Part shown: piece after piece, positions 4,709 through 45,800 of the stretch
Numbering within the stretch: position 1 is the first letter of the stretch
Layout of the letters: each line of letters begins with the position of its first letter
Source: a virus
DNA length: 64,000 bases
IMG/VR virus record: IMGVR_UViG_3300027763_000039
Span: 32,001 to 96,000 of that record
Reading direction: 5' to 3' (one strand)
Notes under the pieces: model-generated
Told to the model about the DNA's origin: nothing
What the model saw: only the letters and a program-made list of their open reading frames with translations
Databases searched by the model: none
Program-made: the position numbers and the translations under genes

Positions 4709-5619
4709 GCTTTATTACTGGCAATGTTCTAGAAAAATTTACAGACGATAAGCACAATATCATATATTATCCTCAAAATAATATGTTCGATCATTTGTTG
4801 GCCAACATTAATGATCACTCCTATTATATCTTTGGAGAAAGTAAAAATAATTTTCAGACCCCCAACCTGATCAACCTACCTAATAATCTCATATCTCTGT
4901 ATAATTACAATCTTTCTGTTACTAATAATATTCTTGGATACGCATCCAACAACCTAAAACATTTACATTTAAATAGCATTATTTGTACACACTCACACAG
5001 GCCCCCATATATCAAAAAAGAAGATTCTCTCTTAATGGATCAAAGACTAACAAAAGAAATAAAAGTCTTTTTTACAGAATCAAGTAAAGAATCCTGGAGA
5101 ATTAGCACAGGAAATGTTATAAGGTACGGTATTCCAGAGCTATTTATTAACGAAAACCCTGTAGCAAAAAGAAAAGATGTGTTGATTCTTAGCTTTGAAA
5201 ACACACCCCATGCTAAACAAATTCAACAAATATTATTAAACAATAACTATTCTTGTGATATTATGGATTCATGCTCTATCGGTACTCAGGATATCGTTAA
5301 AAAATTCAATGACTATAATATATGTGTGGATTTATCTGAACATAATATTATTAATCTTCTGTGCGCTATTGCTGCCGGGTGTGTGACTATTACTATGATG
5401 CCGCAAGTACTAGCCTCAGAATATGATGATCTTGATGGTCTGATCTTTCTTGAGTCTATTAACCAAATAGGAGAAGCTATTAAGTCTGTTCTACCCACAC
5501 AGGATGAAAAAAGACAACAAAATAGAGACCAAATACTAGAAAGATTTTCTTTCAACGATTTTAAAACACGGTTCAATTCTTTAATCACCAAGGCTAACGC
5601 GGAGGCATTCATCCTATGA
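4699..5619 (+). CDS. Divergent GT-B-fold protein, probably catalytically degenerate
   Basis: IRYGIPELF, LLCAIAAGCVTIT (EAMAxG-like with Glu replaced) and terminal ILERFSFNDF resemble the GT4 C-domain. Confidence 0.55.
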   Translation: MYLSFITGNVLEKFTDDKHNIIYYPQNNMFDHLLANINDHSYYIFGESKNNFQTPNLINLPNNLISLYNYNLSVTNNILGYASNNLKHLHLNSIICTHSHRPPYIKKEDSLLMDQRLTKEIKVFFTESSKESWRISTGNVIRYGIPELFINENPVAKRKDVLILSFENTPHAKQIQQILLNNNYSCDIMDSCSIGTQDIVKKFNDYNICVDLSEHNIINLLCAIAAGCVTITMMPQVLASEYDDLDGLIFLESINQIGEAIKSVLPTQDEKRQQNRDQILERFSFNDFKTRFNSLITKANAEAFIL

Positions 5620-19226: not shown

Positions 19227-19236
19227 TTTTTATTTC

Positions 19237-24807: not shown

Positions 24808-24834
24808 AATTTTATCCTTATTTTAATCTTCCTA

Positions 24835-26481
24835 TTAATCTGTTATGCACCTTACCCATTCCCATCCTTTAATTTTCGTGAATCTTCCTTCGGTGGGATT
24901 CCAAGTTGAACTATCCTGCTTGATATAAGATTTTACACCGCCGTTGATTGGATTAGATGACATATTCCCCGGATTAAAAGCTTCAACTGCTCCTGTAACA
25001 GCATTATAATGTTCTACTGGAAATGTTAGATTTTTTAATCCTGTTGGCCTAGGAAATATCGCTTCAAAAGTAACATTTCTAGTAGCAGCAGTAACTGTTC
25101 CCAAGTCTTGTAAAATAGGACCAAGTTTACGACCAAGAACAAAAATAGAAGCAATAATAGGAACAGCAGAAGTATCTTCTATAGTTAATGTTTCGCTAAT
25201 TGAACCTGGAATTAAATTAATTGGTCTATTGTTAAAAACCCAATTATAAGTCACAGTACCTTCTGATGGATTAAAACCTTCTTGAATACTATATGGAATG
25301 GGATTCATTGCATTTTCATATCCATTTGATCGAGTTCTATCGTTTTTGAATGGGCCGTCTTTAAAAAGAGGAGAAAAAAAGCTACGATCTCCAGTATTGG
25401 CAAAACTATTTACTCTATTCATTATTTCAGGCTTAATACCACTATATCCACTAATAGCAGCAATAAATTTACTATTGTATATTCTAGTGTCTTTAGTATC
25501 TTTGTTATGAAGTTCGGCCAACGAACCACTTAAAGATCCACTAATATATGGTACTTTATCTTTGTTGTATATGTTTCCACTTTGAAAAGGTTCTAATCCT
25601 TTAACTGTGCCTTGAATAGTAACTGTTCTTAACATGGTATTATCTAGAGTATTCTCCACAGAGAAAGTTTCTATATACCCCATTTTATCATCAGGCATAC
25701 CCAGCCAAGTATCTGTAACTTTATAAGAACCTTCAGTATCACTAGTATTAACACTTCTAACAAAATTATACAGATATAAGCCCTGATCAATAACTCCTGT
25801 ATATTTGGGGATTCCAGTAAGATGAACATTAACCCAGTATTTTGCATTTTGAACGGCACTTGTTCCTACTCCACTACCTGTTGGTATAAATTTACCAACT
25901 GCCCCTAATACTCTGGTAATACGATATAGTGGATATATTGAACCGGCACCATATGTTATCTTTCCAAAACCCAAAGAACCAATATCTAATGGAGATTTAG
26001 CAAAATTATACTCATCAATAGTTTCTATAGTATAATCATCTTGCGTACTACTAACATAGTATATGTTATTTCCTGTATCTACAACTTCTGATTGTAATTC
26101 TATACTATAGTTTATTGTAGTTGTCCAATTATCCTCTGTTTTATCAGCAGCATATTTAGTAATTTTAATTCCAGAATATACTATATTATCCTTAGTAGAA
26201 TTATCATTCTCTCCACAACCGATAGTTAAATTTTGTCCATCTGAAGAAAAAATCTTTTTCAATCCACTTTCCAAAGTTAGTAAACCAGAAAAACCAGAAT
26301 TCCCGCCGCTAATAGCAGAATAGATTTTCCCCTCTAAATTAATAGTAACAGTAGCTCCAACAGGTCTCCCACCACCATCTCTTTGTTGTTCTTTAGAGAT
26401 ACTTATTACTGGAACAGGATATCCGCTGGCTCCTTTAAAGCTAAAGGTTCCATATTTTATATATGCTGATGTTGCTGCCAT
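24835..26481 (-). CDS. Putative distal tail/tail-tip structural protein
   Basis: Position after the TMP; beta-rich (TVTINLEGKI, INYSIELQS, RTVTIQGTVKG); AAGGA RBS. Confidence 0.5.
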   Translation of the reverse strand: MAATSAYIKYGTFSFKGASGYPVPVISISKEQQRDGGGRPVGATVTINLEGKIYSAISGGNSGFSGLLTLESGLKKIFSSDGQNLTIGCGENDNSTKDNIVYSGIKITKYAADKTEDNWTTTINYSIELQSEVVDTGNNIYYVSSTQDDYTIETIDEYNFAKSPLDIGSLGFGKITYGAGSIYPLYRITRVLGAVGKFIPTGSGVGTSAVQNAKYWVNVHLTGIPKYTGVIDQGLYLYNFVRSVNTSDTEGSYKVTDTWLGMPDDKMGYIETFSVENTLDNTMLRTVTIQGTVKGLEPFQSGNIYNKDKVPYISGSLSGSLAELHNKDTKDTRIYNSKFIAAISGYSGIKPEIMNRVNSFANTGDRSFFSPLFKDGPFKNDRTRSNGYENAMNPIPYSIQEGFNPSEGTVTYNWVFNNRPINLIPGSISETLTIEDTSAVPIIASIFVLGRKLGPILQDLGTVTAATRNVTFEAIFPRPTGLKNLTFPVEHYNAVTGAVEAFNPGNMSSNPINGGVKSYIKQDSSTWNPTEGRFTKIKGWEWVRCITD

Positions 26482-26502
26482 AAATTATCCTTAAATTTAT
26501 TC

Positions 26503-29500
26503 CTAGTTCAAATACAATGGATCAGCACCATAATGATTGAGCTGATTGATTCTTGCTGTGGCTGACCATATTGCAGTATATCCTGTGGAACCACTAGCAA
26601 CAATACTCAGTCTAGAGGGATTAGATGCAACTATTTGAGTGCTCAATGACATTCCAGCAGGCATACTATCTCCATAAGTTCTTACGCTTTCTGTGCCAAG
26701 CTTAGAAAATCTAAGACCACTCACTGTTCTAATTAGAGCCCCTTCAATAAATATACCAGCCCCATATCTAGTCCCATAAGTATTTTGAGCTATTGTAGTC
26801 CCAGATTGCCACATAACAGAAACATCTATTTGATATGCCCAAACTCTATCGTATTCATAATTTTGAGATCCAGAAAAAGCATCCAAATTGATACAGTTGG
26901 TTGAGGTTTCTGTTGTAGAAACTGTGCTTCCAGTTTGTGGTTTTGTCCAATCATTTACTAATGGTCTTACTTGACCACCATCTGTTGTACGAGTTCTTAA
27001 ATAGTATTGAGCAAACTGGGATGATCCGTTGTATTTTTCTTCACTAACCTTCAGAGATCCTCCAGCAAAAACATGATTATGTGTTGTGCGAGTTACTTGT
27101 GCTTTATAACCAAATTCTATACCAGCAATAGTACCAGGATCATTAGCTGTTGTGTTTTGATAAACTCTTAAACCACTAGATCCTACCCATGCATCTCCAC
27201 GATAAACTAACATGCTTCCATCAGTCATGTTGGTGCCATCAACAAATTTATTAGTTAAACCAATATCTACTCTGTATGATGAATTACCTTGTGAAGTGTA
27301 GGTTATATTTGCTGGATATATTCCAGAAAACTGTGTTTTCAAATCTATATCGCTAAAGCTCAAATTCCCATACTGGTCAGTTTTTAAATAATATCCAGAG
27401 ACGGTTGCTCCCACACCAAGTTTCAAACTATTAAACCAAGCTGTACCATTAGCATATAATACCACTCCACTGCTATTAGCATTAGAAATATTATTAGATG
27501 AAGCATTGATCATCACTGATCCAGTTGGACTAATATGAAAACCATTTCTATTGCTCCAAGAACCAGAATTAATAACCGAAAATTTATTACCTAAGCCACG
27601 GTTATTAAATACTGTATCATAATTATCGTTAGAGCTTAGTACGATATTATAAAAGCTATCTGGATTATTAACTAGAACATCATTAGTAAAGACTCCAGTA
27701 GCTCCCAGAGCTAAAATTTGTTGAGAATTGATCCATTTGATGCTGGCATTTCCTGTAGCTAATGAGCCTTCATTTGCAAAAATAACACTATTAGGTCTTG
27801 TTGTAGTAGAGTTTAATCGTCCACTATTATTAACATATAAGAATGTTCCAGTAAGACTAGGAGATAGATTGATTCCACTACTGATTGTTAAATTATTAAA
27901 TGTGCCAGAATTACCACTAACATTATAAAAATCGATTCTTTGATTACCAAAATTAGTATCTAATAATACTTTAGCAAATTCAACACCACCACTACCTCTT
28001 ATTCTGAATCTGTATGTGGATGCTTCATCATTAACAAATACCCCGGTAGAAGCAATATAAAAACCATTATCTCCCCCCAAATTAAAATTCATTTGTTTGG
28101 TACTAGGACTGTACAATATCTCAGAAATGCCACTAGCAACCTTATCACTTACTCTATACAATAATCCATTATCCGTACCAGAAATTCTAACAGGCAACTG
28201 CCATGTTCCAACGCCGTTAGTATTAGTTGTTAATACATAAGCGTCTGGAGCAGAAAAACCCACTCTAATTCCGGATGTTGTTGTTGTTCCACTTACTGAT
28301 AACTCTGATGTTGGACTATTTGTATTAATACCTACTCTATTATTATTTAAAGAAACATTCAAAACACTAGTATTATCATTACTAGACTTAATAATAAAGT
28401 TATCTTGTATAGCACCAGAATTGAAGACAACCTTATCATTATCTAATAACATCTTATTAGAATTATTAGTGCCCATATAAAGAGTATTATCTGCAACACC
28501 ACTAATACCGTATCCTAGCACCACATTACGAACACCAGAAACATTATTATTATAACCAACAACAACACCACTACTATACAAATATCTATTATTAGTGCCA
28601 ATAACTATATTATTAGAACCATAGATTGGATTCGTTTCAGTACCACCAGCCCCACCCATTCGTTGATATGGCATTACTAAACCACTAATTACGGATGTAT
28701 TGGGACTATTATTATCATCAAAAGCAGTATTGATAGAATAATATCCATTAGTAGTATCAACAGACATTGGTGAACCAATAGATATGGTAGTGGTTTCATC
28801 AATAGTATTTTCTGTTACATTAACAATATCTCTAATGAAAGTATTTGAAACAGATGGTGAGCTTTGAACGTAAAATAAAATCTTATCACCGGCTATATAT
28901 TGTGACAATAATCCACGGGTGGGAATTGTTATATTGAGTCCAGCACTATCTAAAGTACATTTGTCTCTGGTGGAACCTAAAGTATTATTACGACCATATA
29001 CTATATTATTGATACCGTGTAAATTATTTGATGTTCCAATAATGATTCCACTTGATACTGCCTGATTATATCCTAATACAATATTTCCACTACCAAAAAC
29101 ATCCATTTTATTATTTGTGGTGTTAAAAACTATAGACTCTTGACCAACAGCTAGTATCTTAGATCCAACAGCACCTAATTGATCACCGACCAAGAAATTA
29201 GAATTGCCAATTGCATAAGCGTTGGAAGTATTTTTTAAGTTATTATAGGAACCAACAGAACTAATATTAGAACCAGAAGCAACATTTTTATTACCCAAAA
29301 TAACATTACTATTACCAGATAATACCAAATTATTAATACCAGCAACAATAGAATTATTAACTGTTCCAGCTGTTCTAGCAGGGTTACCGCTAATGGCTCC
29401 ATCTGAAGAGATATAAGCTCCAGTTTGATTATTCAGTATGCCTACAATTAAATTATTATTACTAATGGGTGGGACAGCATTAATGCTACCCAATACTAAA

Positions 29501-30831
29501 TTGTTAGAGACAGTACCACTTAAATTATTAGTATTGCCAACAACTAAAGAACCATTGATATCCTTAAGAGTATTAGACTGACCAATAAGTAATAGTTTGG
29601 ATGGGGCTCCACTAGCAAAATTATTATTGATACCTAAAAGAATACTTTGATCCAGACCAGAGCTTGTAGAATTACCTAATCCAATAACAATAGACTTGCT
29701 TGTATCTTGTAAATTAATATTATTGCCAACAAAAATACCACTAGAAATATTAGTTATATTTTGATCAGAACCAATACAGATAAGTTTGGTGCCGGTAATT
29801 ACATCTGAACTGCCATATACTTTATTAGAGTTACCACTTAAACTAACTTTAGAACCAACTACGCTATTATCATTACCAAATATAGTATTAATATTACCAA
29901 TATAAATATTGTTGTCGCCAGTATTACTTACATAAGAACCCAAAACAACACCAGATGCTCCAGAACCAACTCCAACTTGAACTAATCCAACATTTGTAGA
30001 AACATTAAGATTGTTATTCCTTCCTAAAAGAATATTATAGTTACCAGTAATACTACTAGAATTACCAACAAAAATATTAGATAACCCAGTTAAACTAACT
30101 GAGTCACCCAGAGCAGTATTATTTGAACCAATTAATCTAGAGTTATTTACTAGAGCAAAAACTTTGGCTCCATTAAAATAGTTTGAACTACCAACAACTA
30201 TGCCAGTATTAGATATTCCTGTGTTACTTGAGCCGACAGTTGTTAATCCAACACCAGTTACAGAATTGCCAACACCTAAGACTGTGTATGTATAACCAGA
30301 AACGCTGTTGCCACCACCCAGCACAACATTTCTTAAATTAGCACTAAATACTGGTTTATTTGTTCCTTTATCGTCAACAGTGAATAGTATTTCGCCACTA
30401 GTAGATCCCGTAATAGGATCTAAAATTTTGGACATTATTTGTCCGTAAACAATTTCGTTATAATTAGTGTCTCGTCCAGCCAAATTAATAGTAGCTGGAT
30501 AGCTGCCAGATAATGGAGCAGTTTGGGGGTTGTGTACTAATAGGAGGGTGACACCTGTGGGGCAATTTGTAATACTCTCAACAATTAAGCCATCTTTAGC
30601 ACATGGGGCGACCACATGCAAAACAGCATCTGGTAATCCTGTACCAATTCCTAGTCTGCCAGTTGAGGCATCAAAATGTACTAGTCCATTACCGGTACCA
30701 CGAATGCTAAAATCAATATCTTGTTTGAGAGCATTAAAAGAGGTGCTAATACCAGAAGTTTCTGATAAGATAATTGATGGATTAACGCCAGAACCAACAT
30801 AGAGTGTGCCGGATACTGTTTGATTGCTCAT
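26503..30831 (-). CDS. Tail fibre/adhesin with beta-roll (YadA-head-like) repeats
   Basis: Long run of ~14-aa [hydrophobic]-G-x-N-N repeats (about aa 170-790), RLGIGT/RVGINTNSP fibre motifs, YVLTTNTNGVGTW. Confidence 0.7.
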   Translation of the reverse strand: MSNQTVSGTLYVGSGVNPSIILSETSGISTSFNALKQDIDFSIRGTGNGLVHFDASTGRLGIGTGLPDAVLHVVAPCAKDGLIVESITNCPTGVTLLLVHNPQTAPLSGSYPATINLAGRDTNYNEIVYGQIMSKILDPITGSTSGEILFTVDDKGTNKPVFSANLRNVVLGGGNSVSGYTYTVLGVGNSVTGVGLTTVGSSNTGISNTGIVVGSSNYFNGAKVFALVNNSRLIGSNNTALGDSVSLTGLSNIFVGNSSSITGNYNILLGRNNNLNVSTNVGLVQVGVGSGASGVVLGSYVSNTGDNNIYIGNINTIFGNDNSVVGSKVSLSGNSNKVYGSSDVITGTKLICIGSDQNITNISSGIFVGNNINLQDTSKSIVIGLGNSTSSGLDQSILLGINNNFASGAPSKLLLIGQSNTLKDINGSLVVGNTNNLSGTVSNNLVLGSINAVPPISNNNLIVGILNNQTGAYISSDGAISGNPARTAGTVNNSIVAGINNLVLSGNSNVILGNKNVASGSNISSVGSYNNLKNTSNAYAIGNSNFLVGDQLGAVGSKILAVGQESIVFNTTNNKMDVFGSGNIVLGYNQAVSSGIIIGTSNNLHGINNIVYGRNNTLGSTRDKCTLDSAGLNITIPTRGLLSQYIAGDKILFYVQSSPSVSNTFIRDIVNVTENTIDETTTISIGSPMSVDTTNGYYSINTAFDDNNSPNTSVISGLVMPYQRMGGAGGTETNPIYGSNNIVIGTNNRYLYSSGVVVGYNNNVSGVRNVVLGYGISGVADNTLYMGTNNSNKMLLDNDKVVFNSGAIQDNFIIKSSNDNTSVLNVSLNNNRVGINTNSPTSELSVSGTTTTSGIRVGFSAPDAYVLTTNTNGVGTWQLPVRISGTDNGLLYRVSDKVASGISEILYSPSTKQMNFNLGGDNGFYIASTGVFVNDEASTYRFRIRGSGGVEFAKVLLDTNFGNQRIDFYNVSGNSGTFNNLTISSGINLSPSLTGTFLYVNNSGRLNSTTTRPNSVIFANEGSLATGNASIKWINSQQILALGATGVFTNDVLVNNPDSFYNIVLSSNDNYDTVFNNRGLGNKFSVINSGSWSNRNGFHISPTGSVMINASSNNISNANSSGVVLYANGTAWFNSLKLGVGATVSGYYLKTDQYGNLSFSDIDLKTQFSGIYPANITYTSQGNSSYRVDIGLTNKFVDGTNMTDGSMLVYRGDAWVGSSGLRVYQNTTANDPGTIAGIEFGYKAQVTRTTHNHVFAGGSLKVSEEKYNGSSQFAQYYLRTRTTDGGQVRPLVNDWTKPQTGSTVSTTETSTNCINLDAFSGSQNYEYDRVWAYQIDVSVMWQSGTTIAQNTYGTRYGAGIFIEGALIRTVSGLRFSKLGTESVRTYGDSMPAGMSLSTQIVASNPSRLSIVASGSTGYTAIWSATARINQLNHYGADPLYLN

Positions 30832-30843
30832 TATAATTACCCC

Positions 30844-33800
30844 TTATACTTGGAGTACTCCTTCTGTTTTCATTGCTAGTTTGTTCATGGCTCCGTTAAC
30901 TTGATCTAGGATCATTCTCTGAATAGGTTCTTGCATATTAGCAAATACTGATGCTCCATTAATAACAACTTCTACTCTGTGTGTACCTTGTAGATTAACT
31001 TGTTCTGGTATTTTAATCTGTTCAAGTTGACCAATAAATCTATTGAAAGTGCTGGTAAACTGGCTTAATCCGTCTAATTGACCTCTGCTATTATTATTTA
31101 CACCACCACCGACTGGAGTTGCCCCCATGCTTTGAATCATGTTTTCTAAAGCCATACCAAATTGGGTTAATACTTGATTACTTCCAGTTAATAAAGTTCC
31201 AAATATCGCTAATTGTTTATCAACATCTCCAGCATGTTGAGGATCAAAAGCTGCTTGAGCAGCCATATTTACTCTTTGGCTCATTTGGGGATTCATCTGT
31301 TGATTACCCTGAGTAAACATTGCCTGATTTTGTTGTTGGTTCTGTTGGTTTGTCTGATTCCCTTGAGGAGGAGCTTGTTGAATCTGTCTTGGTATTCCTC
31401 TATATTTATATTCTTCAGCTTTATTTATTTGTGCTTCTTTTACTCTCTCGCCCAATGCTTTTCTTTCAGCTTCTATACTATCTCTAGTCTGTTTTCTCTC
31501 TGCTTCTATTGCTGCTAGTCTTAGTTGATCTAATTGTCTTCTTTCATCTCTGTCTTGTGTATATTTTCGTTTTTTAGGAGTTTCTCCACCTGACTCTAAG
31601 TATACTACTCCACCACTAGAAAATCCTTGGGCTCCACTATTAATACTCTTTAACAGAGGTAGATTTTGCTGAGTGGCCTGACGATTAACAACAAACTCTC
31701 CTGGGGTCAACATTGCTGGTACAGTGTCTGTGCCTCTTGGCTGATAAGGAATCAACATTCCATTATTAGCATAAACCACCCCACCTCTAGCCTTAGCTAA
31801 TACATCAATATTACTAGGAGCTAAATTGTCTGAACCAATATATTTAATAGCTGATCCAGGTGGCATAGTTTCAAAAAATCCTTCTCTAAATTTTTGAAGC
31901 ATCTCTGGATTTCTTTTTCCTATAAACTTCATAATTTGGGATAGAACTTCACCATCTCTTGTTACTGCATCTGTACTATCATATATTGCTCGTCTGCTTG
32001 GTAGTCTAGTCTGCTGTTGCATTAGCCAACTATCTGCAAGACCTCCCCCTCCACTATTTGGACTAGCAAATGTTTGTGTTTGAATACCTCTTAAGGTTTT
32101 ACCAGATGGATCTTGTAATTCTAGTTTCTTTAATAACGGGGAATATTTCATATCAGATAATACTGATTGTACTTGGTCAAAATTATCATGTAACCAACGA
32201 GCCACATAAGATTTATTTAGCTCATAATCAAGATCAAATCTTGATGGGTCTAATGTTTCATCAAATTTAACAATCATGGGTTTACCACGAGTATCTGCTC
32301 CTGTAAGTGTTCCTTGCATAATAGATCTGGCGTGTTTTTCAGCTGCTTCCCTACTAGTGTAGGTGTACAAGCCTTGACCTTGTCCGTACCCCTTTGCAAT
32401 ACTACTTTTACCACCTTCTTTTTGAAAACTTTTTAAAATAGAGTCTTCTAAGCCAGTATTACTAGCATGAAAAAGAGGTACAGTTTTAGAAGCTTTGGGC
32501 ACATCTAATGGCGCACTAGATTTAGTAATAGGAGTTTTTGCTCCTCTGATACTTTGTCTTGAACCAGCGTTGGTTGTTGTAGCACCTCCAGCCACAGCTG
32601 CTTCAGCAATATCAGTAAACATATTCCAAGCTGCACCAGCTCTTTCTAAAAAAGAAGCTCCTAATAATCCTGGTCCTGCTGGTGGACCATAAGCACTAAT
32701 TTCTCCTGTTGGAGTATGCCACTGTCTCCCACTATTATCTGTAGTTATTTTTGCTCGTTGTGTTTGTAATTTTGCCTGTTGATTAGCAAAGTCTAATTCT
32801 CCTTGGGTTGGAGTCATTTCTGGCATATAGTTCTGATTTTGTTGACCTAGTCTTGGATCCATTAATCGTGATCCTGGAACCAACACACCATTTTGAGCAT
32901 AAACTATGCCACCCTGAGATTTAAATTGACCAAATGCTTTTGCTTTAGAGGATGGTATTGGTGTGACAGGTGTTGGGCTTACGGGCTTAACTAAATCGCC
33001 ATAGCCTTGTTGCTCAATTTCATATGAGGTTGTTGGTCTTCTAATATAGTCTTCACCAACACCAGACTCAACTCTAGTAGTATCTGTTATAAGACTTGGT
33101 TTCTTAGTATAACCATTTTCTCCAGCACTAATATCAGGATGTTTTTCTAATTTTTTCCATAATTTTTTAGCATCTGGAGTTTGACTATCGTCAGGTATTA
33201 CAGAACCACCTATTTTAGTGATATACTCTATAATAGCATGATATAAACTTTCTCCATATCCTTTTTTGGCTAATGATGTTTCTATTTTAAATGTTTTTTG
33301 ATTATCTATCGGTTTTGCAGAAACTCTTCCCCATCCTTGGTTAGCGGATCCAGTTTTTGGATCTTCATAAAAAGCAATTATCTCTCTTGCATCTTCTCCA
33401 AATACTTCTGAATTAAACTTGTCTGCATTTGTATTATCGTATGGACTTAGAATGCGAATTTTATTACTTGCTGGAGCTCCAGGAACATCTGGAGTTTGTG
33501 GTTTATTTTGTTGAGCAAGGAGAGACTGTTGGAGCTTGATCATAACTTTTTGTTTAGCATCTTCTAATACTCCACGAGCTGTTTCTATTAAGAATCCACC
33601 TCTAGATTGTGCTAGTTTTGGATCAGTATCTGCTTGAGTTAAATTAAAATTAGTATGTCTAGACAAAAATTCAGCAGCAGCAGACTCGCTTTCAGGTTGA
33701 TAGAAATTACCAGTTCCTTCGACTTTAGCACCATATGTGCCTCCAACTTTTTGTTCAGCAGTACCAATTAAACCTCTATCTTTGTATCGGGAGGCATTCA

Positions 33801-36800
33801 TTTCATCTACTGGTCCAAGATTAACACGTTCAAATTTACCCATTTCTGAACGAAAATTACTTAATAGTACTTCTTTTAATGCTGTTTGTATATTTTCTCT
33901 ACCAATAGTATCTCTAACCCCCATACGACCAACAGGCTGTTGCGCAACACCAGGGGCTTTTGCTCCTATTCCGGTAATGCCAATCTCTTGATCTCCAAAC
34001 AATAAATTAGTACGATTAAATGTTTTTGGTAATTCACCAGATGTTCCAGTTAGTTGATATAATGTTTCAACTAAACTATCAAAAACTGGTTGAGGATATT
34101 GAATAAGTCTCTGTATCGAATCAATATCAAAATCTTTTGTTTCAATAAATTTAGAAAAAGTTGGTTTAGCTTGAGGTTTTATAAAAGAGCTTGCACCTGT
34201 TATTTTATTAGTATCAACTGTTCTGTTGGAAGCAAAGTCATATTCTGATGAATTCTTAGCCGAAGTATATGCTGCATCTAATGTTTGTTGATGACTTCGT
34301 ACTCTGTAGCTAGCAATTTCATCTGCTCTTTCTTCTAAGCTTCTATAGACAGGTAAACCCTGCTGGTTTCTTGATTTAGTATCTGGTCTAAGAGTACCCT
34401 CTTTTTCTTGTTTTTGATATTCTGCAAGTTGTTCTTTGGCCCATTGAGTTTTTAGTTTCTCTAATCTTTTGAATTCAATATCTCTAGCATCTTTTAGAGA
34501 TTTTTGATATTCTGCCAATGTTCGACTTTGAGACATAGTTTTACTTGGATCAAATACTTGCGCCGTAGCTTGTGTGTCAGTTGAGGTAAGACCAGTTCCT
34601 TTTACTCCTCCAGCTTTTGGATTAGCAGCGCCGCGAGTGCCCAAATCTTCAAAACCCAAAGGAGCTCTTTCTGGTCGTGGGGCTGGTAATACTACTGGTT
34701 GTTTAAGCAGAGGGGTTTTTGCTCTTGGTACTCTTGTTTGTGGTGATGGTTTAGGTCCTGCTCCGGGTAAACCAAAAAGAAAACTTCCTACAATATCACT
34801 AAACATATTCATTCTCTCATGGAATGGAGCACCCAATGGCCCTGGTCCTGGTGGTGGTCCATAAGCACTTATAACACCTTCTGGAGCATTCCAATCAAAT
34901 CCTTCAGCATCTCTATTTGCTACATGAGCTTGTTGTTGTCTACGTGCCCAATCTAATTCTCCTTGAGTTGGAGTCATTTCCGGCATATCACTCTGATTTT
35001 GTTGGCCCAATCTTGGATCCATTATTCTTGGAACTAGCGTACCTTCATGAGCATAAATTATCCCACCCTTAGAATATGTGGTAGCATTCGCATCTTCTGG
35101 ATCAAAATCTTTAATCATCTTTTCAAGTCTATCACCCTTGACTCCCGGATAATTTTCTTTCATCCAAGTTCTAAAATTAACTGCTGGTGAACCACCAACA
35201 GCATCGGAATAATTACCATATTCATTCCAATACTGCCGGGAATTTCTCAACTGAGAGGATTCCTCAGGGTTACCCCAATTTTTTAAAATACTTGCTATTC
35301 TGGCTTCCTGTCTTGCTTTCTCTATTTGTTCTGGTGTTAGTTTAGCTTTATTACTCTGTTTGTCTTTTCTTTTGATACCTGCCACTTGTTTTCTTCTTAA
35401 CTTCTCATTTTCATAGTCTGCTTTTCTTTGTGCTCTTATATCTTCTAAACTAGGTTTATTTATTTGTCTACCATCTTGAGCATAAACAACTCCACCATTA
35501 GAATAAAGTTCAGCCATTCTCATGGCCATCATAGTTTCATATTTATCCTTAAACATAGTATAAAAATCTAAATCTTCTGTTGCAAATCCAGAATCTTCTG
35601 ATCTATTTAATGAATTACGATTAGCTAAGAAATAGTGATATGCCTGTTCAACAGTTTTATATGGCACTGGTTTATTTGCAGACACTAGTGCTTGTTGATG
35701 TCTTTTCATTATTTGTCTAACCGCTCCAAGCCTAGCATCAATTTCAAATGGCCTAGTTAAATATTCTGCTCTAGACATGCTTATAGGATTGTTTGGATAC
35801 TTTGCATTATAAACTTGAACAGCCCAATCTAGATCTTCGTTTGTCATAAAAGTTTCAGATCGTTGCGATTCATCAGTACTTCCAAAAGCAGCATGTCTCA
35901 TCTCGTGCATTAATAGTCCGTATGAGCCCTTTTTAGGATCAACATGAATTACTTCTTGTCCTTCTTTTCCCATTAAAGATCCACTAAATCTGGTGTCAAA
36001 AGGAGGCTGATAGTGAGTGCGTATTTTAGTATCTAATTTATGTCTTTCAACATAAGGAAAAGCTCTTCGATATTGTAAATGATCTAATTTCCCTAATGGT
36101 TGACTTTTAAGTTCTTCATCGTTGCTTATGGCAGCATTATATCCTTCTGCAACTGCTTTGTCTAATTCTGCTTTTGATCCGTAAGCTGGTGTTCTAGGAC
36201 TAAATTTTGCTGGTAGTCCTTTGCCAAGAGCAACGTCTTCAAAAGATAAGTCTTGGGAAGGTATATGCTTGCCTTTTTCAGCATAAATTACACCTCCTTT
36301 GTCTTTATTAATAGCTTGTAATAATGGTAAATTTTGACTAGTTGCCTTAGCATTAACAACAAACTCACCAGGAGTTAGCATTGCTGGTACAGTATCCGTG
36401 CCTTTGGGCTGATAATTTATTAATTTACCAGCTGATGCATATACTATACCACCCTTACTAAATTGAGCACCTGCGCCACCCGGATTAACCGGAAGATTAC
36501 CTGCACCGGGAGGAGCACCGGGAAGAGGAGGACCATTTTGAGCACCAGCAGGAGGAGCAGGGGGTATCATAGGTGGAGCAGCTGCTAGAAGCAGCAATCT
36601 ATCTAATTTAGCATCCATTCTGTTAGATAATGCAAAATGAGCAGTGGATAGTTCATAATGGGTTGAGTCTCTATCCATCATGTATCCTAGACTATCAGAA
36701 GTCTGTGATAAATTTGTTTTATTCTGTTTCTTCAAATCATCAGTGTTTTTGAGTAATCTTTGCTCGGTAACATCTACCTTATCAAATCTAGTTAAATTAT

Positions 36801-39800
36801 TTCTATTGATAGTATCGGTATTATTAACTAGTTTGGGTAGTTGTTGATCTTTGGTATTTTTAGTAGTATCAGAAATCTTTGTTGATAGTCCTAGATTATT
36901 TTTAGCATTATTAGCAATTTCTTGTTGTAGTCTTGAGTTTAATTCTTTATCACGAATTTGTGATGACTGTTGTGTAGAGTCTAATGTTTTAGTTTCTCCC
37001 CCAACTGATCTATAAATTACTCCACCCTTGCTCTTATTAATAGCTTGTAATAAAGGAAGATGTTGACTGGTGGCTTTAGCATTAACAACAAATTCGCCCG
37101 GAGTTAACATTGCGGGAACGGTATCAGTTCCTCGTGGTTGATAATCTACTAATGTTCCATCTGCCGCATAAATCATTCCACCATTACTACTTCCTTGAGC
37201 TACTCTGAACGCAGGATTACCAGCAGCAACTCTAGGATATAGTAATCCAACAGTATTGTTAATATTGAAAGCTGATAATCTAGCAGCATTAGCAGCATCA
37301 GTATCTTCTGGATTAATATAACCCATTTTCGTTAATTGTTTGCTAATATTATTCTTTAGCATGGCCTGTTGACCAGGATTCATGCCTTGACCTCTTGCTG
37401 CCATTCTATCAATGCTACTAAAGTTTCTTAATAACTTAGCAAAAGTTTTTCCTTGAGCTTTCTCTAGTCTTTTTCTCTCAGCCATAGTAGCCACATCCGC
37501 ACCATAATCACCAGACTTATTATAGATACGAAATGCTACTTGCTCAATTTGATCTTGACTCATTCTTAATATGGCAATATCTCTATCACTATATTTATAG
37601 TTACCACCAACCGTTTGCTGACTCATTGTTTGAATAAGTGCTTCAGCTTGTTCTGGTGTGAATGGACGGAAAAGATCTTTAGCAGCATCTGCTGATAAGC
37701 CGTACTTTGTTAAGAGTTTTTCGTCTAGTCTGGGACTTCCACTTAGATTAAACTTTCCTCTAAGTTTAGATAAGGCTTGTTCTCTCCAGCCCATAAAAGC
37801 TTCTGGACTACGGAATTTATCTGGAGCACCCATACCAACAGCTTTACCTACCGCTAATTCCAAGTTAAATCGTCTAGAATTAGCTCTATTAGATGCTAAA
37901 ATTTGTGCTCTATTAGCTTCTCTTTCTTGTTTTTTCTCATAGTTTTTCCATAGTCTATCTTGTTCAGCTAGTGGGATATCAACAAAAGCTTTATTATTTA
38001 ATGATACAATTTGTCTATTTTTATCTTCAAGTTGTTGTAATAGCTTTTCTTTATCTCTCTTCTGTTCCTTGCTCATATCCTTAGGGTCTTTATACTTATA
38101 TCTATCTATTTCTGCTTCTATTTCTTGTTTTTCTTTATTTAATTTATCTGTCTGTTTATAAACATCAACTGTGTCTCCATCAAAAGCGACCTTTGCAGCC
38201 CCTGGTGGTAATGCTGGACGATCAACCCATCGATCAGCCTGACTTTCATTTGCTGCTCGTCTTCTGTTAATATTTTCCTGATTATTTCTATTAATAGTTT
38301 GAAAACCTGATACAGCAGCATTTGCAACTGATGATACATAAGGAACTGCTGTCTGTACTGCTCTATTAGCTGTAGCTCTAACTTGTGTTGCTCTAGTTTG
38401 TCTTCTTTCTTCTTGTCTTTGTCTTTCAACCTTTTTAGCTTTTTCTGCTCTTTTTTGCTCTGCGGCTAGTTCTGATTTTCTTTCTTGCTCATCTAAATAT
38501 TGTACATGAGCTTCTGTGGCGGCATCTAGGCGAGCACTACTAGCTCCTGTTCCTCTATTTTTATCTTGTTTAGTGTCCCAAAATATGCCAGGAACAGTAT
38601 CCATTGTATTAAAAGAATCATCAATAAGTCTTATTTGTTCATCATAAAAATTTTGGTTTGAACTAGTGCCCTGAGAATTTCCTCGGGCTGCTTGATCTTT
38701 TTTCTTTAATCTTAATAGTTCTGCTTTTCTTTCTACAGCGCTTCTTTGAAATGCATTTAAGTCAAAACCACCAAGATGATCATTGGGTCTTCTGGGTCTT
38801 CTGCTAGCTTGTAAGTTTCTATTTGTTCTTATTTCACTGGTAGTTGCATCATTAGCATCTGCTAAATAACCAGCTGTTTCTTGAATATTCATAGCTAATG
38901 CAGCTGTAATTGGAGCGAATTGTGCTGGGACACCCATAGTAGCGTGTTCAACTGAAGTTAATCCTAATTGACTGAAATTACCCAATTGTCTATCTAACAT
39001 AGTTCCTTGTTCAACACCCGTAGCCCATCCTATCATAGAATGAGCTCCAACATCACCCATGGTCTCTCCCGTGCCTGTTAACATTCCTAGTCCAGTATTA
39101 ACTAATCTATTTCTATTTGTGAGTCTAGGATCAGCCATTGCTCCACTAACAGCGCCAAAAATTGATCCAAAAAATCGACCAGCAATAGGAGCGGCAGCTC
39201 TGGCAATACCTGGAGCTTGACTAGCTCCATAACTCAAAGCTGCTCCGGGATTTCTAATAACAGATCTAGCTCCTTGATAAGCACTGCCTAACATATTTCC
39301 AGTTCTATTTAGTAATGAAGCTGGTGGTTTTGGTTTTACCGGTTGTATTCCTAACCATCTTTCTAAACCATTTGGATTTACATTTCTGGGTCTTCTTATC
39401 TCTGGGATATCGTTATCACCTAAGTCTAGTCCTGCTAATTTGACTTCAGTTATTTGTTGTATGTAGGGTTTAAAAATTGGATCATTAATACCTAATCTAG
39501 AAGCTCGCACAGCTGCATTCCATTCTCTCCTTACCCTAGCTCCAGTCATAGCTGGATCACCCTGTCTAGCTAATAAAAATTTAAATAAAGGATCACGAGG
39601 ACTAAGATTACTAGGTACTCTATATCTATTTCCTCTTGCTATGATATTTAATGCATCACCAGCATCATCACTGCCAGATATCATATTAGCAACTAGCGGA
39701 TCTATTACATTTGCTATCTGCACAGGGTTGGTTGATCCACCAGCTAAATAAACCACCCCACCCTTAGCATATTTACCAGAATTAATACTCTTTAAAAGAG

Positions 39801-42800
39801 GCAAATTATTTTGTGTAGCTGATCTATTAACTACAAATTCACCAGGAGTTAACATGGCAGGAACAGTGTCAGTTCCTCTTGGCTCATAATTAACTAAAGT
39901 TCCACTAGCAGCATAAACTGGACCACCTTGTGCTCTAGTCATAACATTGCCCGGTCTGGCTAATCCTAATCCTTCATTACGACCTTGAGCATTATTAAAA
40001 GCATTGGTCAAATTAGTTAAAGCTGTTATTAAAGCTGTATTAGCAGTATTGAGTATTTGAGCTTGTTTTTCTAATAGTGGGTTAATAGCCTTTTGAGTAG
40101 CTTCGCCCAAAGCTGCCTGTTGTTGTTTATATAGATTCTCTAGTGCTTTAATTTGTGGATCTTCTTTTGGGGCAGCTCTCAGGTTGGCAACAATTTCTCT
40201 TAAGAAAGGATTATTTTGAACATTAAGACCTTGGTTTCTGGCTGTGTTCTCAATCAAATCAGCTCTTAGATTTCCGGCTCTTTGAGGATCAGTATTATCT
40301 AATCCAGAAACAGTAATAAGCTCATTAAATAAACCAAAAGTATTCTTGGCATCACTAGCAAAAGCTTCTTGAGCAGCACCGACCGCATCCATGTGGGTGC
40401 CGCCATCCTCAATAACTTTTTGGTAAGCTTGTTGAGCAGAGATGGACTGGTTGATGGTGGTGATTTGACCGTTTAATGTTCTATTAAGAAGATCATAGGT
40501 GGAATTGAGATTTTTTAATTCTGTGGGGGTGCTTGTTACTAATTTTTCTCCAAAAGAAGCTCCGGCCTGAGTTTTACTTTCTTTCTCTGATCTTAGCTGA
40601 CTAATTTTACTAAGAGTGTCTTGCATATCTTGTTTGATAAGATCTGGTAGGGTTTCTAAACCTTTTTCAGTAGCGGCGATTTGTCTATTTAGATTAGCAA
40701 GAGCTTCTTTTTGCTTGTTGATAAGAGATATAACAGCAGGATCTGCTGCATTACCTGAATTTTCTAGTTTACTAATATTACCTTGAACAGCAGCCTGCTG
40801 ACCCATCAACATTGTTCTTTGGTTGGTCAAATTAGCTGCTGTTAAAGAGCCGGGTTTAATACCAGCGTTTATTGCTGCTTCAGTATATCTGCCTGATGCT
40901 CTTTCTTTAAGAGAAATTCTTCGTCCTTCTCCTAGAGCTTCTTTGAGTGATACAGTACTGTCTGAGAGATATCCTTGTAAACTAGCAAATTTACCAATAG
41001 CTTGAGTTTGAAGTTCAGCTGCTTTTTGTACAGCTTCTCCATATTGATTTAATCCTTTTTCTATAAATTCATACTGACCCAACATTGTATTGAAGGATTT
41101 TTTCTGAGAGTCAATTAATTGTTTTAGTCCACCAGTGCTCTCTATTAAGGACTGAGGATCTAATACTCCGTCATTCTGTTTGATATTATCTTTAACAGCG
41201 CCTTTTAATTGTTCACGAATAGCATCAGAGATTCTATTATCTCCAAAAGTATCTATAAGTTGTTGAGTTAATTCTCTGGTAATATCATCTCCTAAAGTTT
41301 CACTACTACCATTACCGCTCTGTTGTGCTTTAACAGCAATTTTTGTAATAGTATCTTCAGCAGAAGACCCGAACTTGGATAATCCTTCAACAAATTTCTT
41401 ATCTGTACCAAACATTCCACTAACTTGACTAATTGCTGTTTGACGTTCTTTTTGTGAATAAGCATTAGGATTCTTTAATACGTCTTTAGACTTAAATTCT
41501 GTTTTTAGCGAAGCTTGACCACTTGCTATCTCATCAATTCTTTGACTGGCTTTGTCTAATCCCATAGTGGCTGCTGCAATAGCCTGATCCATGTTTTCAA
41601 AGGTTTTAGATATACTAACTGATGCAAGATTTAAAGTTCTTGCAGATTGTTGTAGAGCTTGCACCCTGGATCTTTCTGCTACAGTAGCTTGTAGTGTTGC
41701 TGTTTCTTCTTTAAAGTAAACATCTATTAACTCTTTTTGTCTCTTTTCAACATCTGCTATAATTTGTGGATCTTGTCCTGGAGTTTTCTTAATATTCTCT
41801 AATTTTTTATTTTCCAGATTAAACTTTTCATTAGTTTGAGCAATATTTAATTTTGCTAAGTCTTTATCTCCACCAAAAGAGGATAAGGCTTCCTGAATAT
41901 TTGATCCACCCTCAACCTTAGCTGTAATTGTCTTAAGAGCTATCTCTCCAGCAACTTTTTGGTTAGCAGTTTCTTCTTCAGCAATTTGCTTATCTGTTGG
42001 TTTCGCAGCTTTATACATACCGAAAGAAGCAGCTTCTAAACCACGAGTTAAATAACTGGGCTGTCGTAATTCTGCTTGTTTTGCTGATATTTTTTCTTCT
42101 TCAGCAGCAATGCTTTTAAAATTTTGAATAATTGATGATGTAATAGCGGCATCTTTTGGATTTTTATTAAGTTTTTCTAATTGAGCTTCCGCATTTGTAG
42201 CACTACCTTCTATTTTCTTTTTACTAACATCTATATCAGCTTCTGCCACTGCTTTGCCAAAGCTATCTACAGCTAATACCGCACCAGCTACTGCTCCAGC
42301 AAGTGCTCCCCAAGGACCAAATTGTGCCCCAACAGATACGGCCCCACCAAATGCTGTGCCAGCAGCAGCAACTCCTCTACCATTGCTTCCACCAACCATT
42401 GAGCCTACCGCTTCTGCTGCCATAGGAGCAGCAAATGCTAGAGCTAAACCACCATTCATATATCTAGCTCTTCTATCTCTTTTAGCTTCATATTGTGCTC
42501 TTTGAGAGTCAGACATGTTACCAATTTCTTCATCTGATGGTCCCATTATTCGACTTCTAATTGAACCCAATCCTCTAGATGCTCCTTGAAACGCTTTGGA
42601 AAGTGTAGGAAAGCTTTGTGCTAATCTGCTCTGAGATTGAGTATTTGTTTGAACAGCTTTATACAAACCTCCCCACGCATCTGCCACCTTTCTTTCTGCG
42701 GCGGCCTTGGCCATAGAAACACTAACGCTACTATCTGTTGCTCTAATTTGTCTAGTAAGAGATGCTACTTGTTTACGTTGAGCATCTGCTACGGCCTTGG

Positions 42801-45800
42801 CGGCATTTTGATCTCCTAAATCAGCTGCTTGTCTAGTACCAAGACTCACTCCTCCGACTACTTGATCTTCTGCTGACCTATAAGCTGTATCGAAATCGAC
42901 AGAAGGATTGGCTGTTGCTATCTGATTTACAATTTTAGCTAATAGATCATCTACTGCTTTTTCAGCCTGTGCTGATACCGCATCAAAACTCGCTACTGCT
43001 TCATATGTTGTGCCACCCCCAGCAAATCGTTGTATTCCACGAACAGCACCACCAGAACGATAGCCTAAAGCTTTAGTTGCAGCTTCACGAAGAATAAAGC
43101 TACCTACTGGTAAGTTTATCGGCCCTATACTATCACTAGTTCCTGTACCCGAACCTTTAAAAACACTAATTCCCCCAGAAGAAAATGAACTCATTCCATT
43201 ACGATCTGCTTGATTCATTCGGTTGAGTTTACCATATCCTATTGCCTTGGCTGTTTCTGGTGGAACATAAGCCTCACCATTAGAAACCATAGCTTGAACA
43301 TGTCCACCCGATGCATAACCTCTAGCTTTAAGATAATTACCAATTTGGTCTTTTAGTTCTGCTGGGCCATTAAGGGTAAGTTTAGCATCTGTTGGAATAT
43401 TTTGAGGAAGATTAAAATATTTAGCAGCATCCTGAAGACCATCTGGGAAGTCGATACCATAATTGGTGGCGGCTTTATTTGCTATTGGACCACCAAGCTG
43501 ATGAATAATACTTTCAGCCATATATCCCTGAGCATTGGCCTCGCCCATCTTTTTACGATCAGAAGATTTAACTTTTTTATTCTTATATAGATAGGTGTTA
43601 ATACCTGCTGCTTTTGCTGCATTAATATTTCTCTCATCATCATCAATAAATGAACCAGACTTGTCCATCTCTTTAAGTTTAAGTTCGGCAATTTGTTCAG
43701 CAGTACGATCTGGACCACCAACACCTTTAATTCTATCTATTGGTATTGGGAGTCCATTTTTAGCTAACCATGTAGCAATCAAACCCATAGTTGCTTGTGG
43801 CCTAGCTGAAATCACATGTAAATTATCAAGTAGTTCTGGAGTTTTCTTAACTTGACTAACAAGAGCTTTACCTAATTTGCTAAGTGTAGCTTTTGCTAGA
43901 GCCCTCTCTACTTTTGTCTTATCAGAAAATTCACTAAATCTTGGTTTTCTAGGATCAGATAGAATTTTATCAGCACCAAAAGCTAATGTCCTATCAAAAT
44001 CAGAATATATGGGACCAACTTGTTTTAAAATATCTCTAATCATTACATTCTTGGTTAAGTTTTGACTTTCACCACTCATCGCTTGAGCCATCCTCTTGAT
44101 GTCTCTTCCAGCAGCGTTTTTATCTAGGACACCACTAGTAATTCTAACTTTAACTGGATTATTTAGTCCTGGAATATCCATTCTGGGAGTTGTAGCAAAA
44201 GCTTTGCCCTTGAATCCAGCAGCACCAAACAATAGACCCTCTGTAGTTGCTTTTTGTATATCCAGATCATTTGCTGCTTTAATTCCAGAAGTTTTCTTTG
44301 TATAAGCTGCTAAGATTTGATCTTTGATGCTTTTTTCCTGTGGACTTAATGCATTTTTTTTCTTTAATATTTTGAGTATATCACCAGCATTTGCTCCACT
44401 AGCTTGCATTGCTCCTTGTAGAGTAAGAACTTTTAATATTTCGCTAGAAGTAGCTGTTGTTCCTGCTGTTGGAGTTACCAAACCAGCATTAGCAAACTTA
44501 CGAATAAAACCTCCGGAAGCTCTATTATTTTTCCCTTGATTTTTTGCGTATAAATCTCTAATTTCATTCATTACCAAATCTTTATTAGGCATCTCATAAA
44601 CATTAATATTACCGATGTCCTTAGACTCTGGAGAAGAAAGAGTAAATGGCCTAGTTAAATTTCTAACCACTCTTGCTCTTAATAACTTATCTAAATAATC
44701 TGTTTTAGACACCATACCAGAAGGACGAAATTTTACTTCTCCTACTGATTTTCCATCTGCACTAATAAGATCTACGGGATAACTATTTCTACGAGGAATA
44801 TTTTCAATTTCTCCAGTTGGTATATATTGTTTTCCTACTCGTTCTTTTATAGTTCTAGAAAGTAATCTCTCATATGCTTCAGACCATTTGGGGCTCTCAT
44901 CTGCTGTTCCAAGCTGACTAATTCTTCGTGCTCCTTCTTTACCAGCTAAAAAGTCTTTTGGTGATTTATCACTTCCTCTTCTTCCTAAAAGATTAGAGTA
45001 GCTTTGCATTTGTGTTGGAGTAGCTTTATTTTTTCCTAATGAAAATCTCTGATTTGTTGGAGAAATAGGTAGACCTTTTCTCATGTCATTATAAATTTCT
45101 CTTGCAATACTCTTAACGTTCAATCCTAACATCCACGGCTCTATCTGTTTAATAAATCCTGAAGCACTATCTTCATTAACGTTCATATACCTAGCTATTT
45201 TAGGATTTTGAGAAATTAATGAAACAGCTTGAGGTAGTTTTTGGATAGATACTGGTCCTACTTTTCCTCCTCCAGCATGTCTATTAATACGATGAAGATT
45301 TCCTACTCCAATACTACGAACAGCACTTTTTCTAAGAACAAACTCTCCCGGCGTTAACATGGCCGGAACAGTATCTCCATCTCCAGAACCTGGAACATGA
45401 CCACCAGCAGCAAAAGCTCTGATTTGTCCACCCTGATTATTTCTGGTGGGTCTAATACCACCAATAAATCCTCTACCGAACTGACCAAGAGCAGACAAAC
45501 CTCTCATTGCAAATATAGCACCAAGAGCTGGTAATGCTCCCTTGGCAGCATCTGTTAATCGAATTAAATTACTAGTTAAATCTAAAGATAATTTAACGAA
45601 AGACTGAAATCCAGAACTTTGTCCAATGGATCTTACTAAGCCTACAAACTCATTTCTTACTTTTGCCATTTGAACAGCTAAAGATTGTTGTGCGGTGGCA
45701 GCATCAATTGCTAAAGAGTCTTGTCCACTTTGTGCAACCTTTAATGCTGCTTGAGCAGTTGCGAACTGTTGAATTAATGGAATCACCTTACCAATCTGAC

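Follow-up and report, generated by a model that had tools for sequence, protein, structure and literature searches.

Duplicated leader peptide and exchangeable modules in the giant tape measure protein of a probable siphovirus-like phage

Tape measure proteins (TMPs) are usually viewed as rulers, with an occasional lytic motif. Why does one such protein carry two copies of a peptide of about 105 residues, each of which is followed by a different sequence? This question is raised by the open reading frame (ORF) P0001 in the window analysed here, a stretch of 64,000 nucleotides (nt) that comprises bases 32001-96000 of the IMG/VR virus contig IMGVR_UViG_3300027763_000039, a metagenome assembly of 108 kb with an estimated completeness of 77%. 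A first-pass annotation had described the repeat as a leader followed by different enzyme tips and had interpreted it as a set of polymorphic-toxin-like cassettes, duplicated and swapped by recombination within the TMP. The analysis presented here confirms the observation in part, the repeat being real and non-random and the enzyme labels half verified, and it partly supports the interpretation. In the explanation that we regard as probable, P0001 is the TMP of a siphovirus-like phage that is uncultured and has a genome of 108 kb or more; between the conserved ends of this TMP, about 2,700 amino acids (aa) would form a hypervariable string of swappable cargo modules separated by joint peptides; the leader would be a long variant of these joints, and both joints and cargo would be exchanged by recombination.

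The ORF in question is defined as follows; residue i of the protein corresponds to DNA position 46995-3(i-1), counting downwards.

30844-46995, minus strand: P0001, TMP of 5,383 aa in a single open frame, with a PF10145 match and a type-1 motif that matches annotated TMPs

The frame runs through all 5,383 codons without interruption. The TMP family domain (PF10145/TP901-type core) is represented by a PhageMin_Tail match at aa 192-384 (E 6.7e-24, 85 bits versus a cut-off of 33). Besides PF10145, no Pfam, PHROG or NCBIfam family was found in any module of P0001, nor did a Pfam search reveal another family in the C-terminal portions of three relatives or in three fragments. Whole or partial TMPs of eight relatives were used for comparison (G001 to G004, from viral contigs, plus P0002 to P0006). 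The N-terminal approximately 2,400 aa and the last approximately 100 aa are common to those relatives that retain these ends, and a table of the modules shows that aa ~2425-5140 are a mosaic: the modules M1-M3 occur only in P0001 among the compared TMPs, tip A is common only to P0001 and G001, and tip B to P0001 and G001-G003. The two leader copies and the modules behind them are located as follows.

34762-35073, minus strand: leader copy A (aa 3975-4078), with a GGIIYA head, MDPRLGQQNQ..MPEMTPTQGELD, ISAYGPPPGPG and the small-hydrophobic segment NMFSDIVGSFLFG
34711-34761, minus strand: basic Pro/Lys tail after copy A (..VPRAKTPLLKQPVV), in which the high-identity homology to G001 begins (aa ~4088, DNA 34734)
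33499-34734, minus strand: N-terminal part of tip A (aa 4088-4499), of no known family, present only in G001 (77% aa identity), with a ratio of nonsynonymous to synonymous divergence (dN/dS) of 0.79
33076-33468, minus strand: minimal module with a GNAT fold that closes tip A (aa ~4510-4640) and contains the candidate CoA loop SLAKKGYGESLY
32587-32919, minus strand: leader copy B (aa 4693-4803), with 83% aa and 85% nt identity to the single leader of G004
32895-32913, minus strand: GGIVYAQ head of leader B, a crossover at which the tip A homology to G001 stops and G001 goes on as a type-1 joint
32518-32586, minus strand: basic tail after copy B (..IRGAKTPITKS), right after which the tip B homology to G001, G002 and G003 starts, at SAPLDVPK (DNA 32517)
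31792-32517, minus strand: tip B (aa 4827-5068), a candidate H-Y-D ADP-ribosyltransferase (ART)-like module with invariant LFHAS, GQGLYTYTS and TRDGE and a dN/dS of 0.12 versus G001

The two leader copies lie about 2.16 kb apart within one gene and share 61-66% identity over about 100 residues (BLASTP E 2e-27). The DNA alignment of the copies contains a block of 79 nt with 87% and one of 71 nt with 76% identity, and both short exact DNA strings quoted in the first-pass annotation were recovered. The RAKTP/GAKTP linker that it had placed behind each copy is equally real: a basic Pro/Lys tail closes copy A (VPRAKTPLLK) as well as copy B (IRGAKTPITK) and is followed by unrelated sequence. Between copies A and B, the synonymous divergence (dS) is 0.77 and dN/dS is 0.37, the latter ranging from 0.29 to 0.37 among leaders, and 67% of the codons at conserved residues are identical versus 53% expected. 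A homotrimer prediction with three copies of the leader gave a score of 0.00 with an uncertain fold, which is not evidence either way.

The proximity of the copies in one gene and the origin of the contig from a metagenome assembly would be compatible with a neutral tandem duplication in situ or with an assembly chimera, neither of which would have a functional meaning. We consider this very improbable, because copy B has 83% aa and 85% nt identity to the G004 leader and only 61% aa and 71% nt identity to copy A, because the dN/dS values of 0.29-0.37 and the uninterrupted frame of 5,383 codons speak against it, and because the same architecture and a near-identical tip B were found on independent contigs from other samples. 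A simple tandem duplication in situ was rejected since copy B is nearer to the leader of another phage than to copy A, and the in-place duplication of a cassette assumed by the first-pass annotation is thus not borne out; an assembly artefact was rejected since the architecture recurs on independent contigs.

The leader is accompanied in this TMP by a second, commoner repeat, here designated the type-1 joint, which reads GGxVYA-x10-PRGTDTVPAMLTPGEFVVN-x-AT-x3-LPLL-x2-IN (in short form GGxVYA..DTVPAMLTPGEFVVN) and has the same separating role as the leader. P0001 contains four well-conserved copies, starting at aa 2355, 3270, 3513 and 5069, and degenerate copies near aa 522 and at aa 1225-1330. 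The well-conserved ones are located as follows.

39724-39933, minus strand: type-1 joint (aa 2355-2424)
36988-37188, minus strand: type-1 joint (aa 3270-3336)
36259-36459, minus strand: type-1 joint (aa 3513-3579)
31576-31791, minus strand: last type-1 joint (aa 5069-5140), inside which the G001 tip B homology block stops, at about aa 5113-5118

In a profile-profile comparison with hhalign, residues 1-40 of the leader (GGIVYAQNGVLVP...MPEMTPTQGEL) were recognized as a diverged type-1 head plus core (probability 90%, E 1.4e-6); the rest, W..P.GEISAYGPPxGPGLLGA.F.ERAGAAWNMFTDI and the basic tail, is specific to the clade. Within the explanation that we favour, the leader is probably a derived, longer joint composed of the diverged type-1 head, a Pro/Gly-rich ISAYGPPxGPG stretch, the small-hydrophobic AGAAWNMFTDI and the basic KTP tail. 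The type-1 core itself is a general TMP motif: in tblastn searches it matched annotated TMP genes in 59 cultured-phage records, among them Shewanella, Paracoccus, Brevundimonas, Nodularia and Mycobacterium phages. The TMP of Paracoccus phage vB_PmaS-R3 (783 aa) has one copy near its C-terminus (aa 677-727) and that of Nodularia phage 2AV2 (3,404 aa) has two (aa 1007-1113). The peptide motif found in TMPs of phages of these five genera, D[TS]xPAxL[ST]xGEFVVN, is the same as that of the type-1 core, from which the head of the leader has diverged. The two cultured-phage TMPs examined, with their one or two motif copies, showed no cargo array, whereas five to eight copies bracket variable modules in the present clade. 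No Pfam, PHROG or NCBIfam model matched the type-1 core. In its consensus form, D.[IV]PA.L..GEFVVN..AT...LPLL..[IL]N, it is widespread and apparently unnamed, and it lies near the C-terminus in the short TMP that resembles those of gene transfer agents.

Identical codons are found at 47-53% of the conserved residues of the type-1 copies within P0001, and since 47-49% are expected from codon usage, these copies are old and what has been preserved is the peptide. The near saturation of synonymous sites between copies argues for peptide-level selection on both joint types and hence for a function of the joints at the protein level, in addition to any role as recombination substrates. Conservation as peptide and not as DNA, and the bracketing of every module by joints, would also be expected of a polyprotein, in which the GGxVYA joints including the leader are putative protease sites that free the cargo in the host, and in which the protease is the HExxH module of the TMP (aa 3580-3833), a host enzyme or the prohead protease. 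The HEMRH-containing module is part of the same protein, a HELGH motif is present in G004, and zincin peptidases, the commonest domain of phage polyvalent proteins, are suggested to set free the other domains of these (Iyer, Burroughs, Anand, de Souza and Aravind 2017, PMC5512222). However, no HMM matched the HExxH module, which is missing from all compared relatives that have the same joints, and the type-1 motif also occurs in ordinary short TMPs without cargo; we judge such processing to be unlikely. As to the HEMRH module as such (window positions 35497-36258, minus strand), GGxVYA joints are located on both sides of it and it is missing from all eight compared relatives; the HELGH motif of G004 belongs to a different module.

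With a profile of the leader, only five clusters were found among 1.84 billion representative proteins, all of them whole or fragmentary giant TMPs with type-1 joints, and a scan of viral contigs revealed one more leader-bearing sequence. The C-terminal half of the leader was not found outside this small clade of giant TMPs in these searches. Five module families, unrelated to one another, follow the nine leader instances, and the contexts upstream of the leaders vary as well.

Tip A: P0001, behind leader copy A
Tip B: P0001, behind leader copy B
Module X, about 340 aa: G004, P0002 and P0004, with 41-52% identity among them
Module Y: behind the second leader of P0002, and in P0006
P0003 tip: P0003

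The leader is thus neither confined to the window nor followed always by the same domain, and the proposal that it recurs in metagenomic phage proteins in front of different modules held, with at least five unrelated families in other giant TMPs and the present one. P0002 (6,107 aa) has two leaders of different subtypes, at aa 4264-4366 and 4719-4806, before modules X and Y, respectively, which makes the double-leader layout a recurrent one in the clade.

How the modules came to be arranged in this way can be seen from a blastn comparison of the P0001 gene with that of G001, its closest relative, which yielded only two blocks of any length, one that contains tip A (aa 4088-4700, 87% nt identity) and one that contains tip B (aa 4827-5113, 93%). 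The nt identity is 87-90% in tip A and 93-94% in tip B versus 69% in the flanking C-terminus, and dS is 0.14 for the N-terminal part of tip A, 0.17 for the GNAT part and 0.23 for tip B, as compared to 0.92 for the adjacent conserved C-terminus. The corresponding comparison with G004 gave a dS of 0.38 for leader B versus 0.88 for the N-terminal 1,300 aa, and 85% nt identity for leader B versus 66% for the backbone. Since the dS values of the cassettes are far below that of the backbone (~0.9), the exchanges are dated as recent. The case for recombination is well supported; in the explanation put forward above, a lineage resembling G001 was probably the recent source of tips A and B, and one resembling G004 that of leader B.

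The edges of the exchanged blocks are informative with respect to the unit of exchange. Both G001 blocks start just downstream of the leader and its basic tail, their left edges being located right after the KTP tails. The right edge of the tip A block lies inside the GGxVYA head, beyond which P0001 continues as leader B and G001 as a type-1 joint, and that of the tip B block lies about 45-50 aa into the type-1 core. In G001 the order of the tips is flipped, with tip B upstream of tip A and a type-1 joint after each. G001 has no leaders; a degenerate leader remnant (AGIAWQMVEDL..RGIKTPITKS) precedes tip A. Tip B occurs without an upstream leader, at 65-94% identity, in G001, G002, G003 and the metagenome contig L020, and a Gly-zipper-like hydrophobic segment is located ahead of tip B in the leaderless relatives. 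Such segments may be a functional alternative to the small-hydrophobic segment of the leader. Two of them (e.g. LPGLAGLGAGVLGLPTTGPGGFAIGLGAG) were observed before tip B in G001 (aa ~1270-1390), G002 (aa ~4450-4580) and G003 (aa ~4230-4360).

These data bear on the possibility that leader and tip form one functional cassette in the manner of polymorphic toxins, with a leader on which the tip depends for a pre-toxin, release or translocation function. Behind every complete leader there is indeed a basic KTP/RGxK tail with a variable module after it, nine leaders have five module families behind them, a pair of leaders with different modules behind them is present in P0002 too, and G001 has kept the degenerate leader remnant before tip A. 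However, tip B is found in G001, G002, G003 and L020 without a leader and with the Gly-zipper hydrophobic segment instead, the G001 homology blocks begin downstream of leader and basic tail, leader B and tip B differ in their nearest relatives, the tips are internal, and there is neither an immunity gene nor an orphan cassette. The obligate cassette is therefore improbable in our view. Because tip B can be leaderless, because the blocks start after the leader and because the nearest relatives of leader B and tip B differ, leaders and tips move independently and leader plus tip is not one unit. The earlier claim of leader-plus-tip swapping holds with respect to the exchange as such, which is evident from the low dS and high nt identity of the cassettes compared to the backbone, and fails with respect to the joint transfer of the two parts.

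Polymorphic toxins consist of a conserved N-terminal or pre-toxin region, an exchangeable C-terminal toxin tip and an immunity gene. The protein described here is similar in that variable modules, exchanged by recombination, lie behind a conserved segment. It differs in that the tips are internal and arranged in series, with a type-1 joint and a C-terminus of 243 aa, conserved in those relatives that have kept it, after tip B, and in that no obligate link between pre-toxin and tip exists, leader and tip recombining independently. No cognate immunity gene or orphan cassette was found downstream of the TMP, where the next ORF codes for 1,442 aa and neither a small ORF nor a silent cassette is present. 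The analogy with polymorphic toxins drawn by the first-pass annotation thus does not extend to their defining features.

Which functions might the cargo have? For the end of tip A, the assignment of a GNAT fold with a candidate β4-α3 pyrophosphate-binding loop (Q/RxxGxG/A) is supported. The GNAT segment matched an Atlas cluster (0.92) in which 50% of the members contain PF00583; it matched no Pfam or NCBIfam profile (e.g. PF00583) up to E 10 or E 1, and a PDB sequence search gave matches at chance level only. The N-terminal part of tip A (412 aa), to which no fold could be assigned, is near-neutral (dN/dS 0.79, dS 0.14 versus G001), unlike tip B and the leader, and its role may be that of a spacer or of an interaction surface that evolves fast. 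Searches for more homologues of the GNAT segment and of tip B, among proteins of near or greater length, in phages by tblastn and in viral and metagenome scans, retrieved only close relatives of the same TMP clade.

Tip B is under strong purifying selection (dN/dS 0.12) and therefore encodes a functional protein. LFHAS, GxGLYTYTS and TRDGE are invariant in four homologues, and the register of these motifs parallels that of the H-Y-D ARTs of polyvalent proteins (Iyer et al. 2017). The Atlas match was weak (0.83), to a cluster with ART-PolyVal in 37% of its members. Comparison by hhalign with five ART-PolyVal sequences, namely the prototype RPP1 vRNAP ART and four relatives, gave E 0.29 and a probability of 0.2%, with the motifs in the expected register; over the hhalign comparisons of tip B with the family, the E values were 0.29-0.43. 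An hmmscan of tip B up to E 10 revealed no match to ART-PolyVal (PF18760), nor did a six-frame scan of the genome for PF18760, in which RPP1 vRNAP as positive control scored 41 bits; scanning of genome contigs provided no additional ART-PolyVal sequences. An AF2 model from an alignment of four sequences had a pLDDT of 40 and is unusable as a fold, and a PDB sequence search with the tip B profile gave only chance-level matches. Judged by its motifs, tip B has a slightly better than even chance of being an ART-like fold. Of the two enzyme tips claimed earlier, the GNAT fold of tip A is therefore supported, whereas the ART label of tip B derives from motifs that no formal test confirmed. The P0003 tip (aa 169-408), which has a pattern of the H...GxGxY type of its own (TFFHNS ... 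GPGFYGG), could be a second ART-like cargo. Its hhalign comparison with ART-PolyVal gave E 0.05; similarity to tip B was not detected (hhalign E 0.24), and no Pfam model matched.

A TMP with joint-separated modules might function as follows. At the protein level, the joints would let a TMP laden with cargo still fit the lumen of the tail, act as hinges or processing points, or do both. On the DNA, they would supply the homology at which related phages swap modules. The cargo would probably be enzymes that travel into the host together with the ejected TMP and exert their action inside it, in line with what has been proposed for polyvalent proteins. Candidates in P0001 are the minimal GNAT acyltransferase, whose fold is supported, and the possible H-Y-D ADP-ribosyltransferase, which is unproven. 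Such delivery would resemble that of phage polyvalent proteins and of T4 Alt. A more far-reaching proposal, which we advance as speculative and rather doubtful, is that the TMP is a polyprotein delivery system of the tail lumen, whose joints act as release or translocation signals for cutting or threading and whose swappable anti-host enzymes enter ahead of the DNA. The leader would then be the joint variant for enzymes directed to the cytoplasm, its Pro/Gly and small-hydrophobic segment replacing the Gly-zipper membrane segment found before tip B in relatives, and lineages would re-arm by exchange at joints.

Embedded enzymatic motifs are known from TMPs, such as the Rpf-like motif of mycobacteriophage TM4 and the peptidase of T5 pb2. 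To our knowledge, the known enzyme-bearing cases are cell-wall hydrolases and single insertions. They share with P0001 the presence of extra functional domains in the TMP that act at infection, but the candidate cargo here consists of modifying enzymes of cytoplasmic type in a multi-cassette array.

The closest concepts are polyvalent proteins and reconfigurable effectors derived from TMPs. In polyvalent proteins, GNAT and ART domains are typical neighbours and zincins with HExxH occur frequently, and delivery of these proteins along with the DNA has been proposed; TMPs are not mentioned in that study (Iyer et al. 2017, PMC5512222). P0001 is likewise a giant virion-associated protein stringing together unrelated, independently acquired modules, but the carrier is the TMP itself and two conserved joint peptides separate the modules. 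Polyvalent families of Pfam, including ART-PolyVal PF18760, were not detected here; with regard to the presence of at least two unrelated effector-type domains, the GNAT fold is supported, ART and HExxH are indicated by motifs only, and many modules have no assignable fold. TMP-derived reconfigurable effectors of the Sle1 type were reported from actinobacterial contractile injection systems (Nagakubo et al. 2026, PMC13277306). They resemble P0001 in having a TMP-related scaffold with diverse exchangeable functional domains that is loaded in a tail-like tube; compared by description, they combine a TMP-related platform with an exchangeable functional domain, whereas P0001 is a true phage TMP that contains many modules and in which the joints recur.

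About half of the 5,383-aa TMP is thus a recombining cargo array between conserved joints, with exchanges dated by cassette dS values of 0.14-0.38 versus ~0.9 for the backbone. If the cargo is delivered, the TMP would be a second route for injecting anti-host enzymes, beside head-packaged polyvalent proteins and T4 Alt, and the joints would be natural splice points for re-arming the phage or for engineering of cargo. The many modules of the clade without a family are candidates for new counter-defence activities. If the proposed delivery system exists, it would be a phage counterpart of the tip switching of polymorphic toxins within a structural ruler protein.

The TMP gene is located among ORFs on the same strand, small ones upstream and large ones downstream, none of which had a Pfam or PHROG match. 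The 1,442-aa ORF begins 13 nt downstream of the TMP. Megablast and tblastn searches of the region and of one neighbouring ORF against cultured phages gave no match, and the virion module around the TMP is almost wholly uncharacterised. Further very large ORFs on the minus strand are located at 11241-30831 and 57713-64000 (2,661, 1,856, 1,442 and more than 2,095 aa); those of 1,856 and 1,442 aa were scanned and had no Pfam or PHROG match. Two nearby ORFs of 821 and 384 aa showed a Laminin_G_3 match and a sub-threshold match to collagen repeats.

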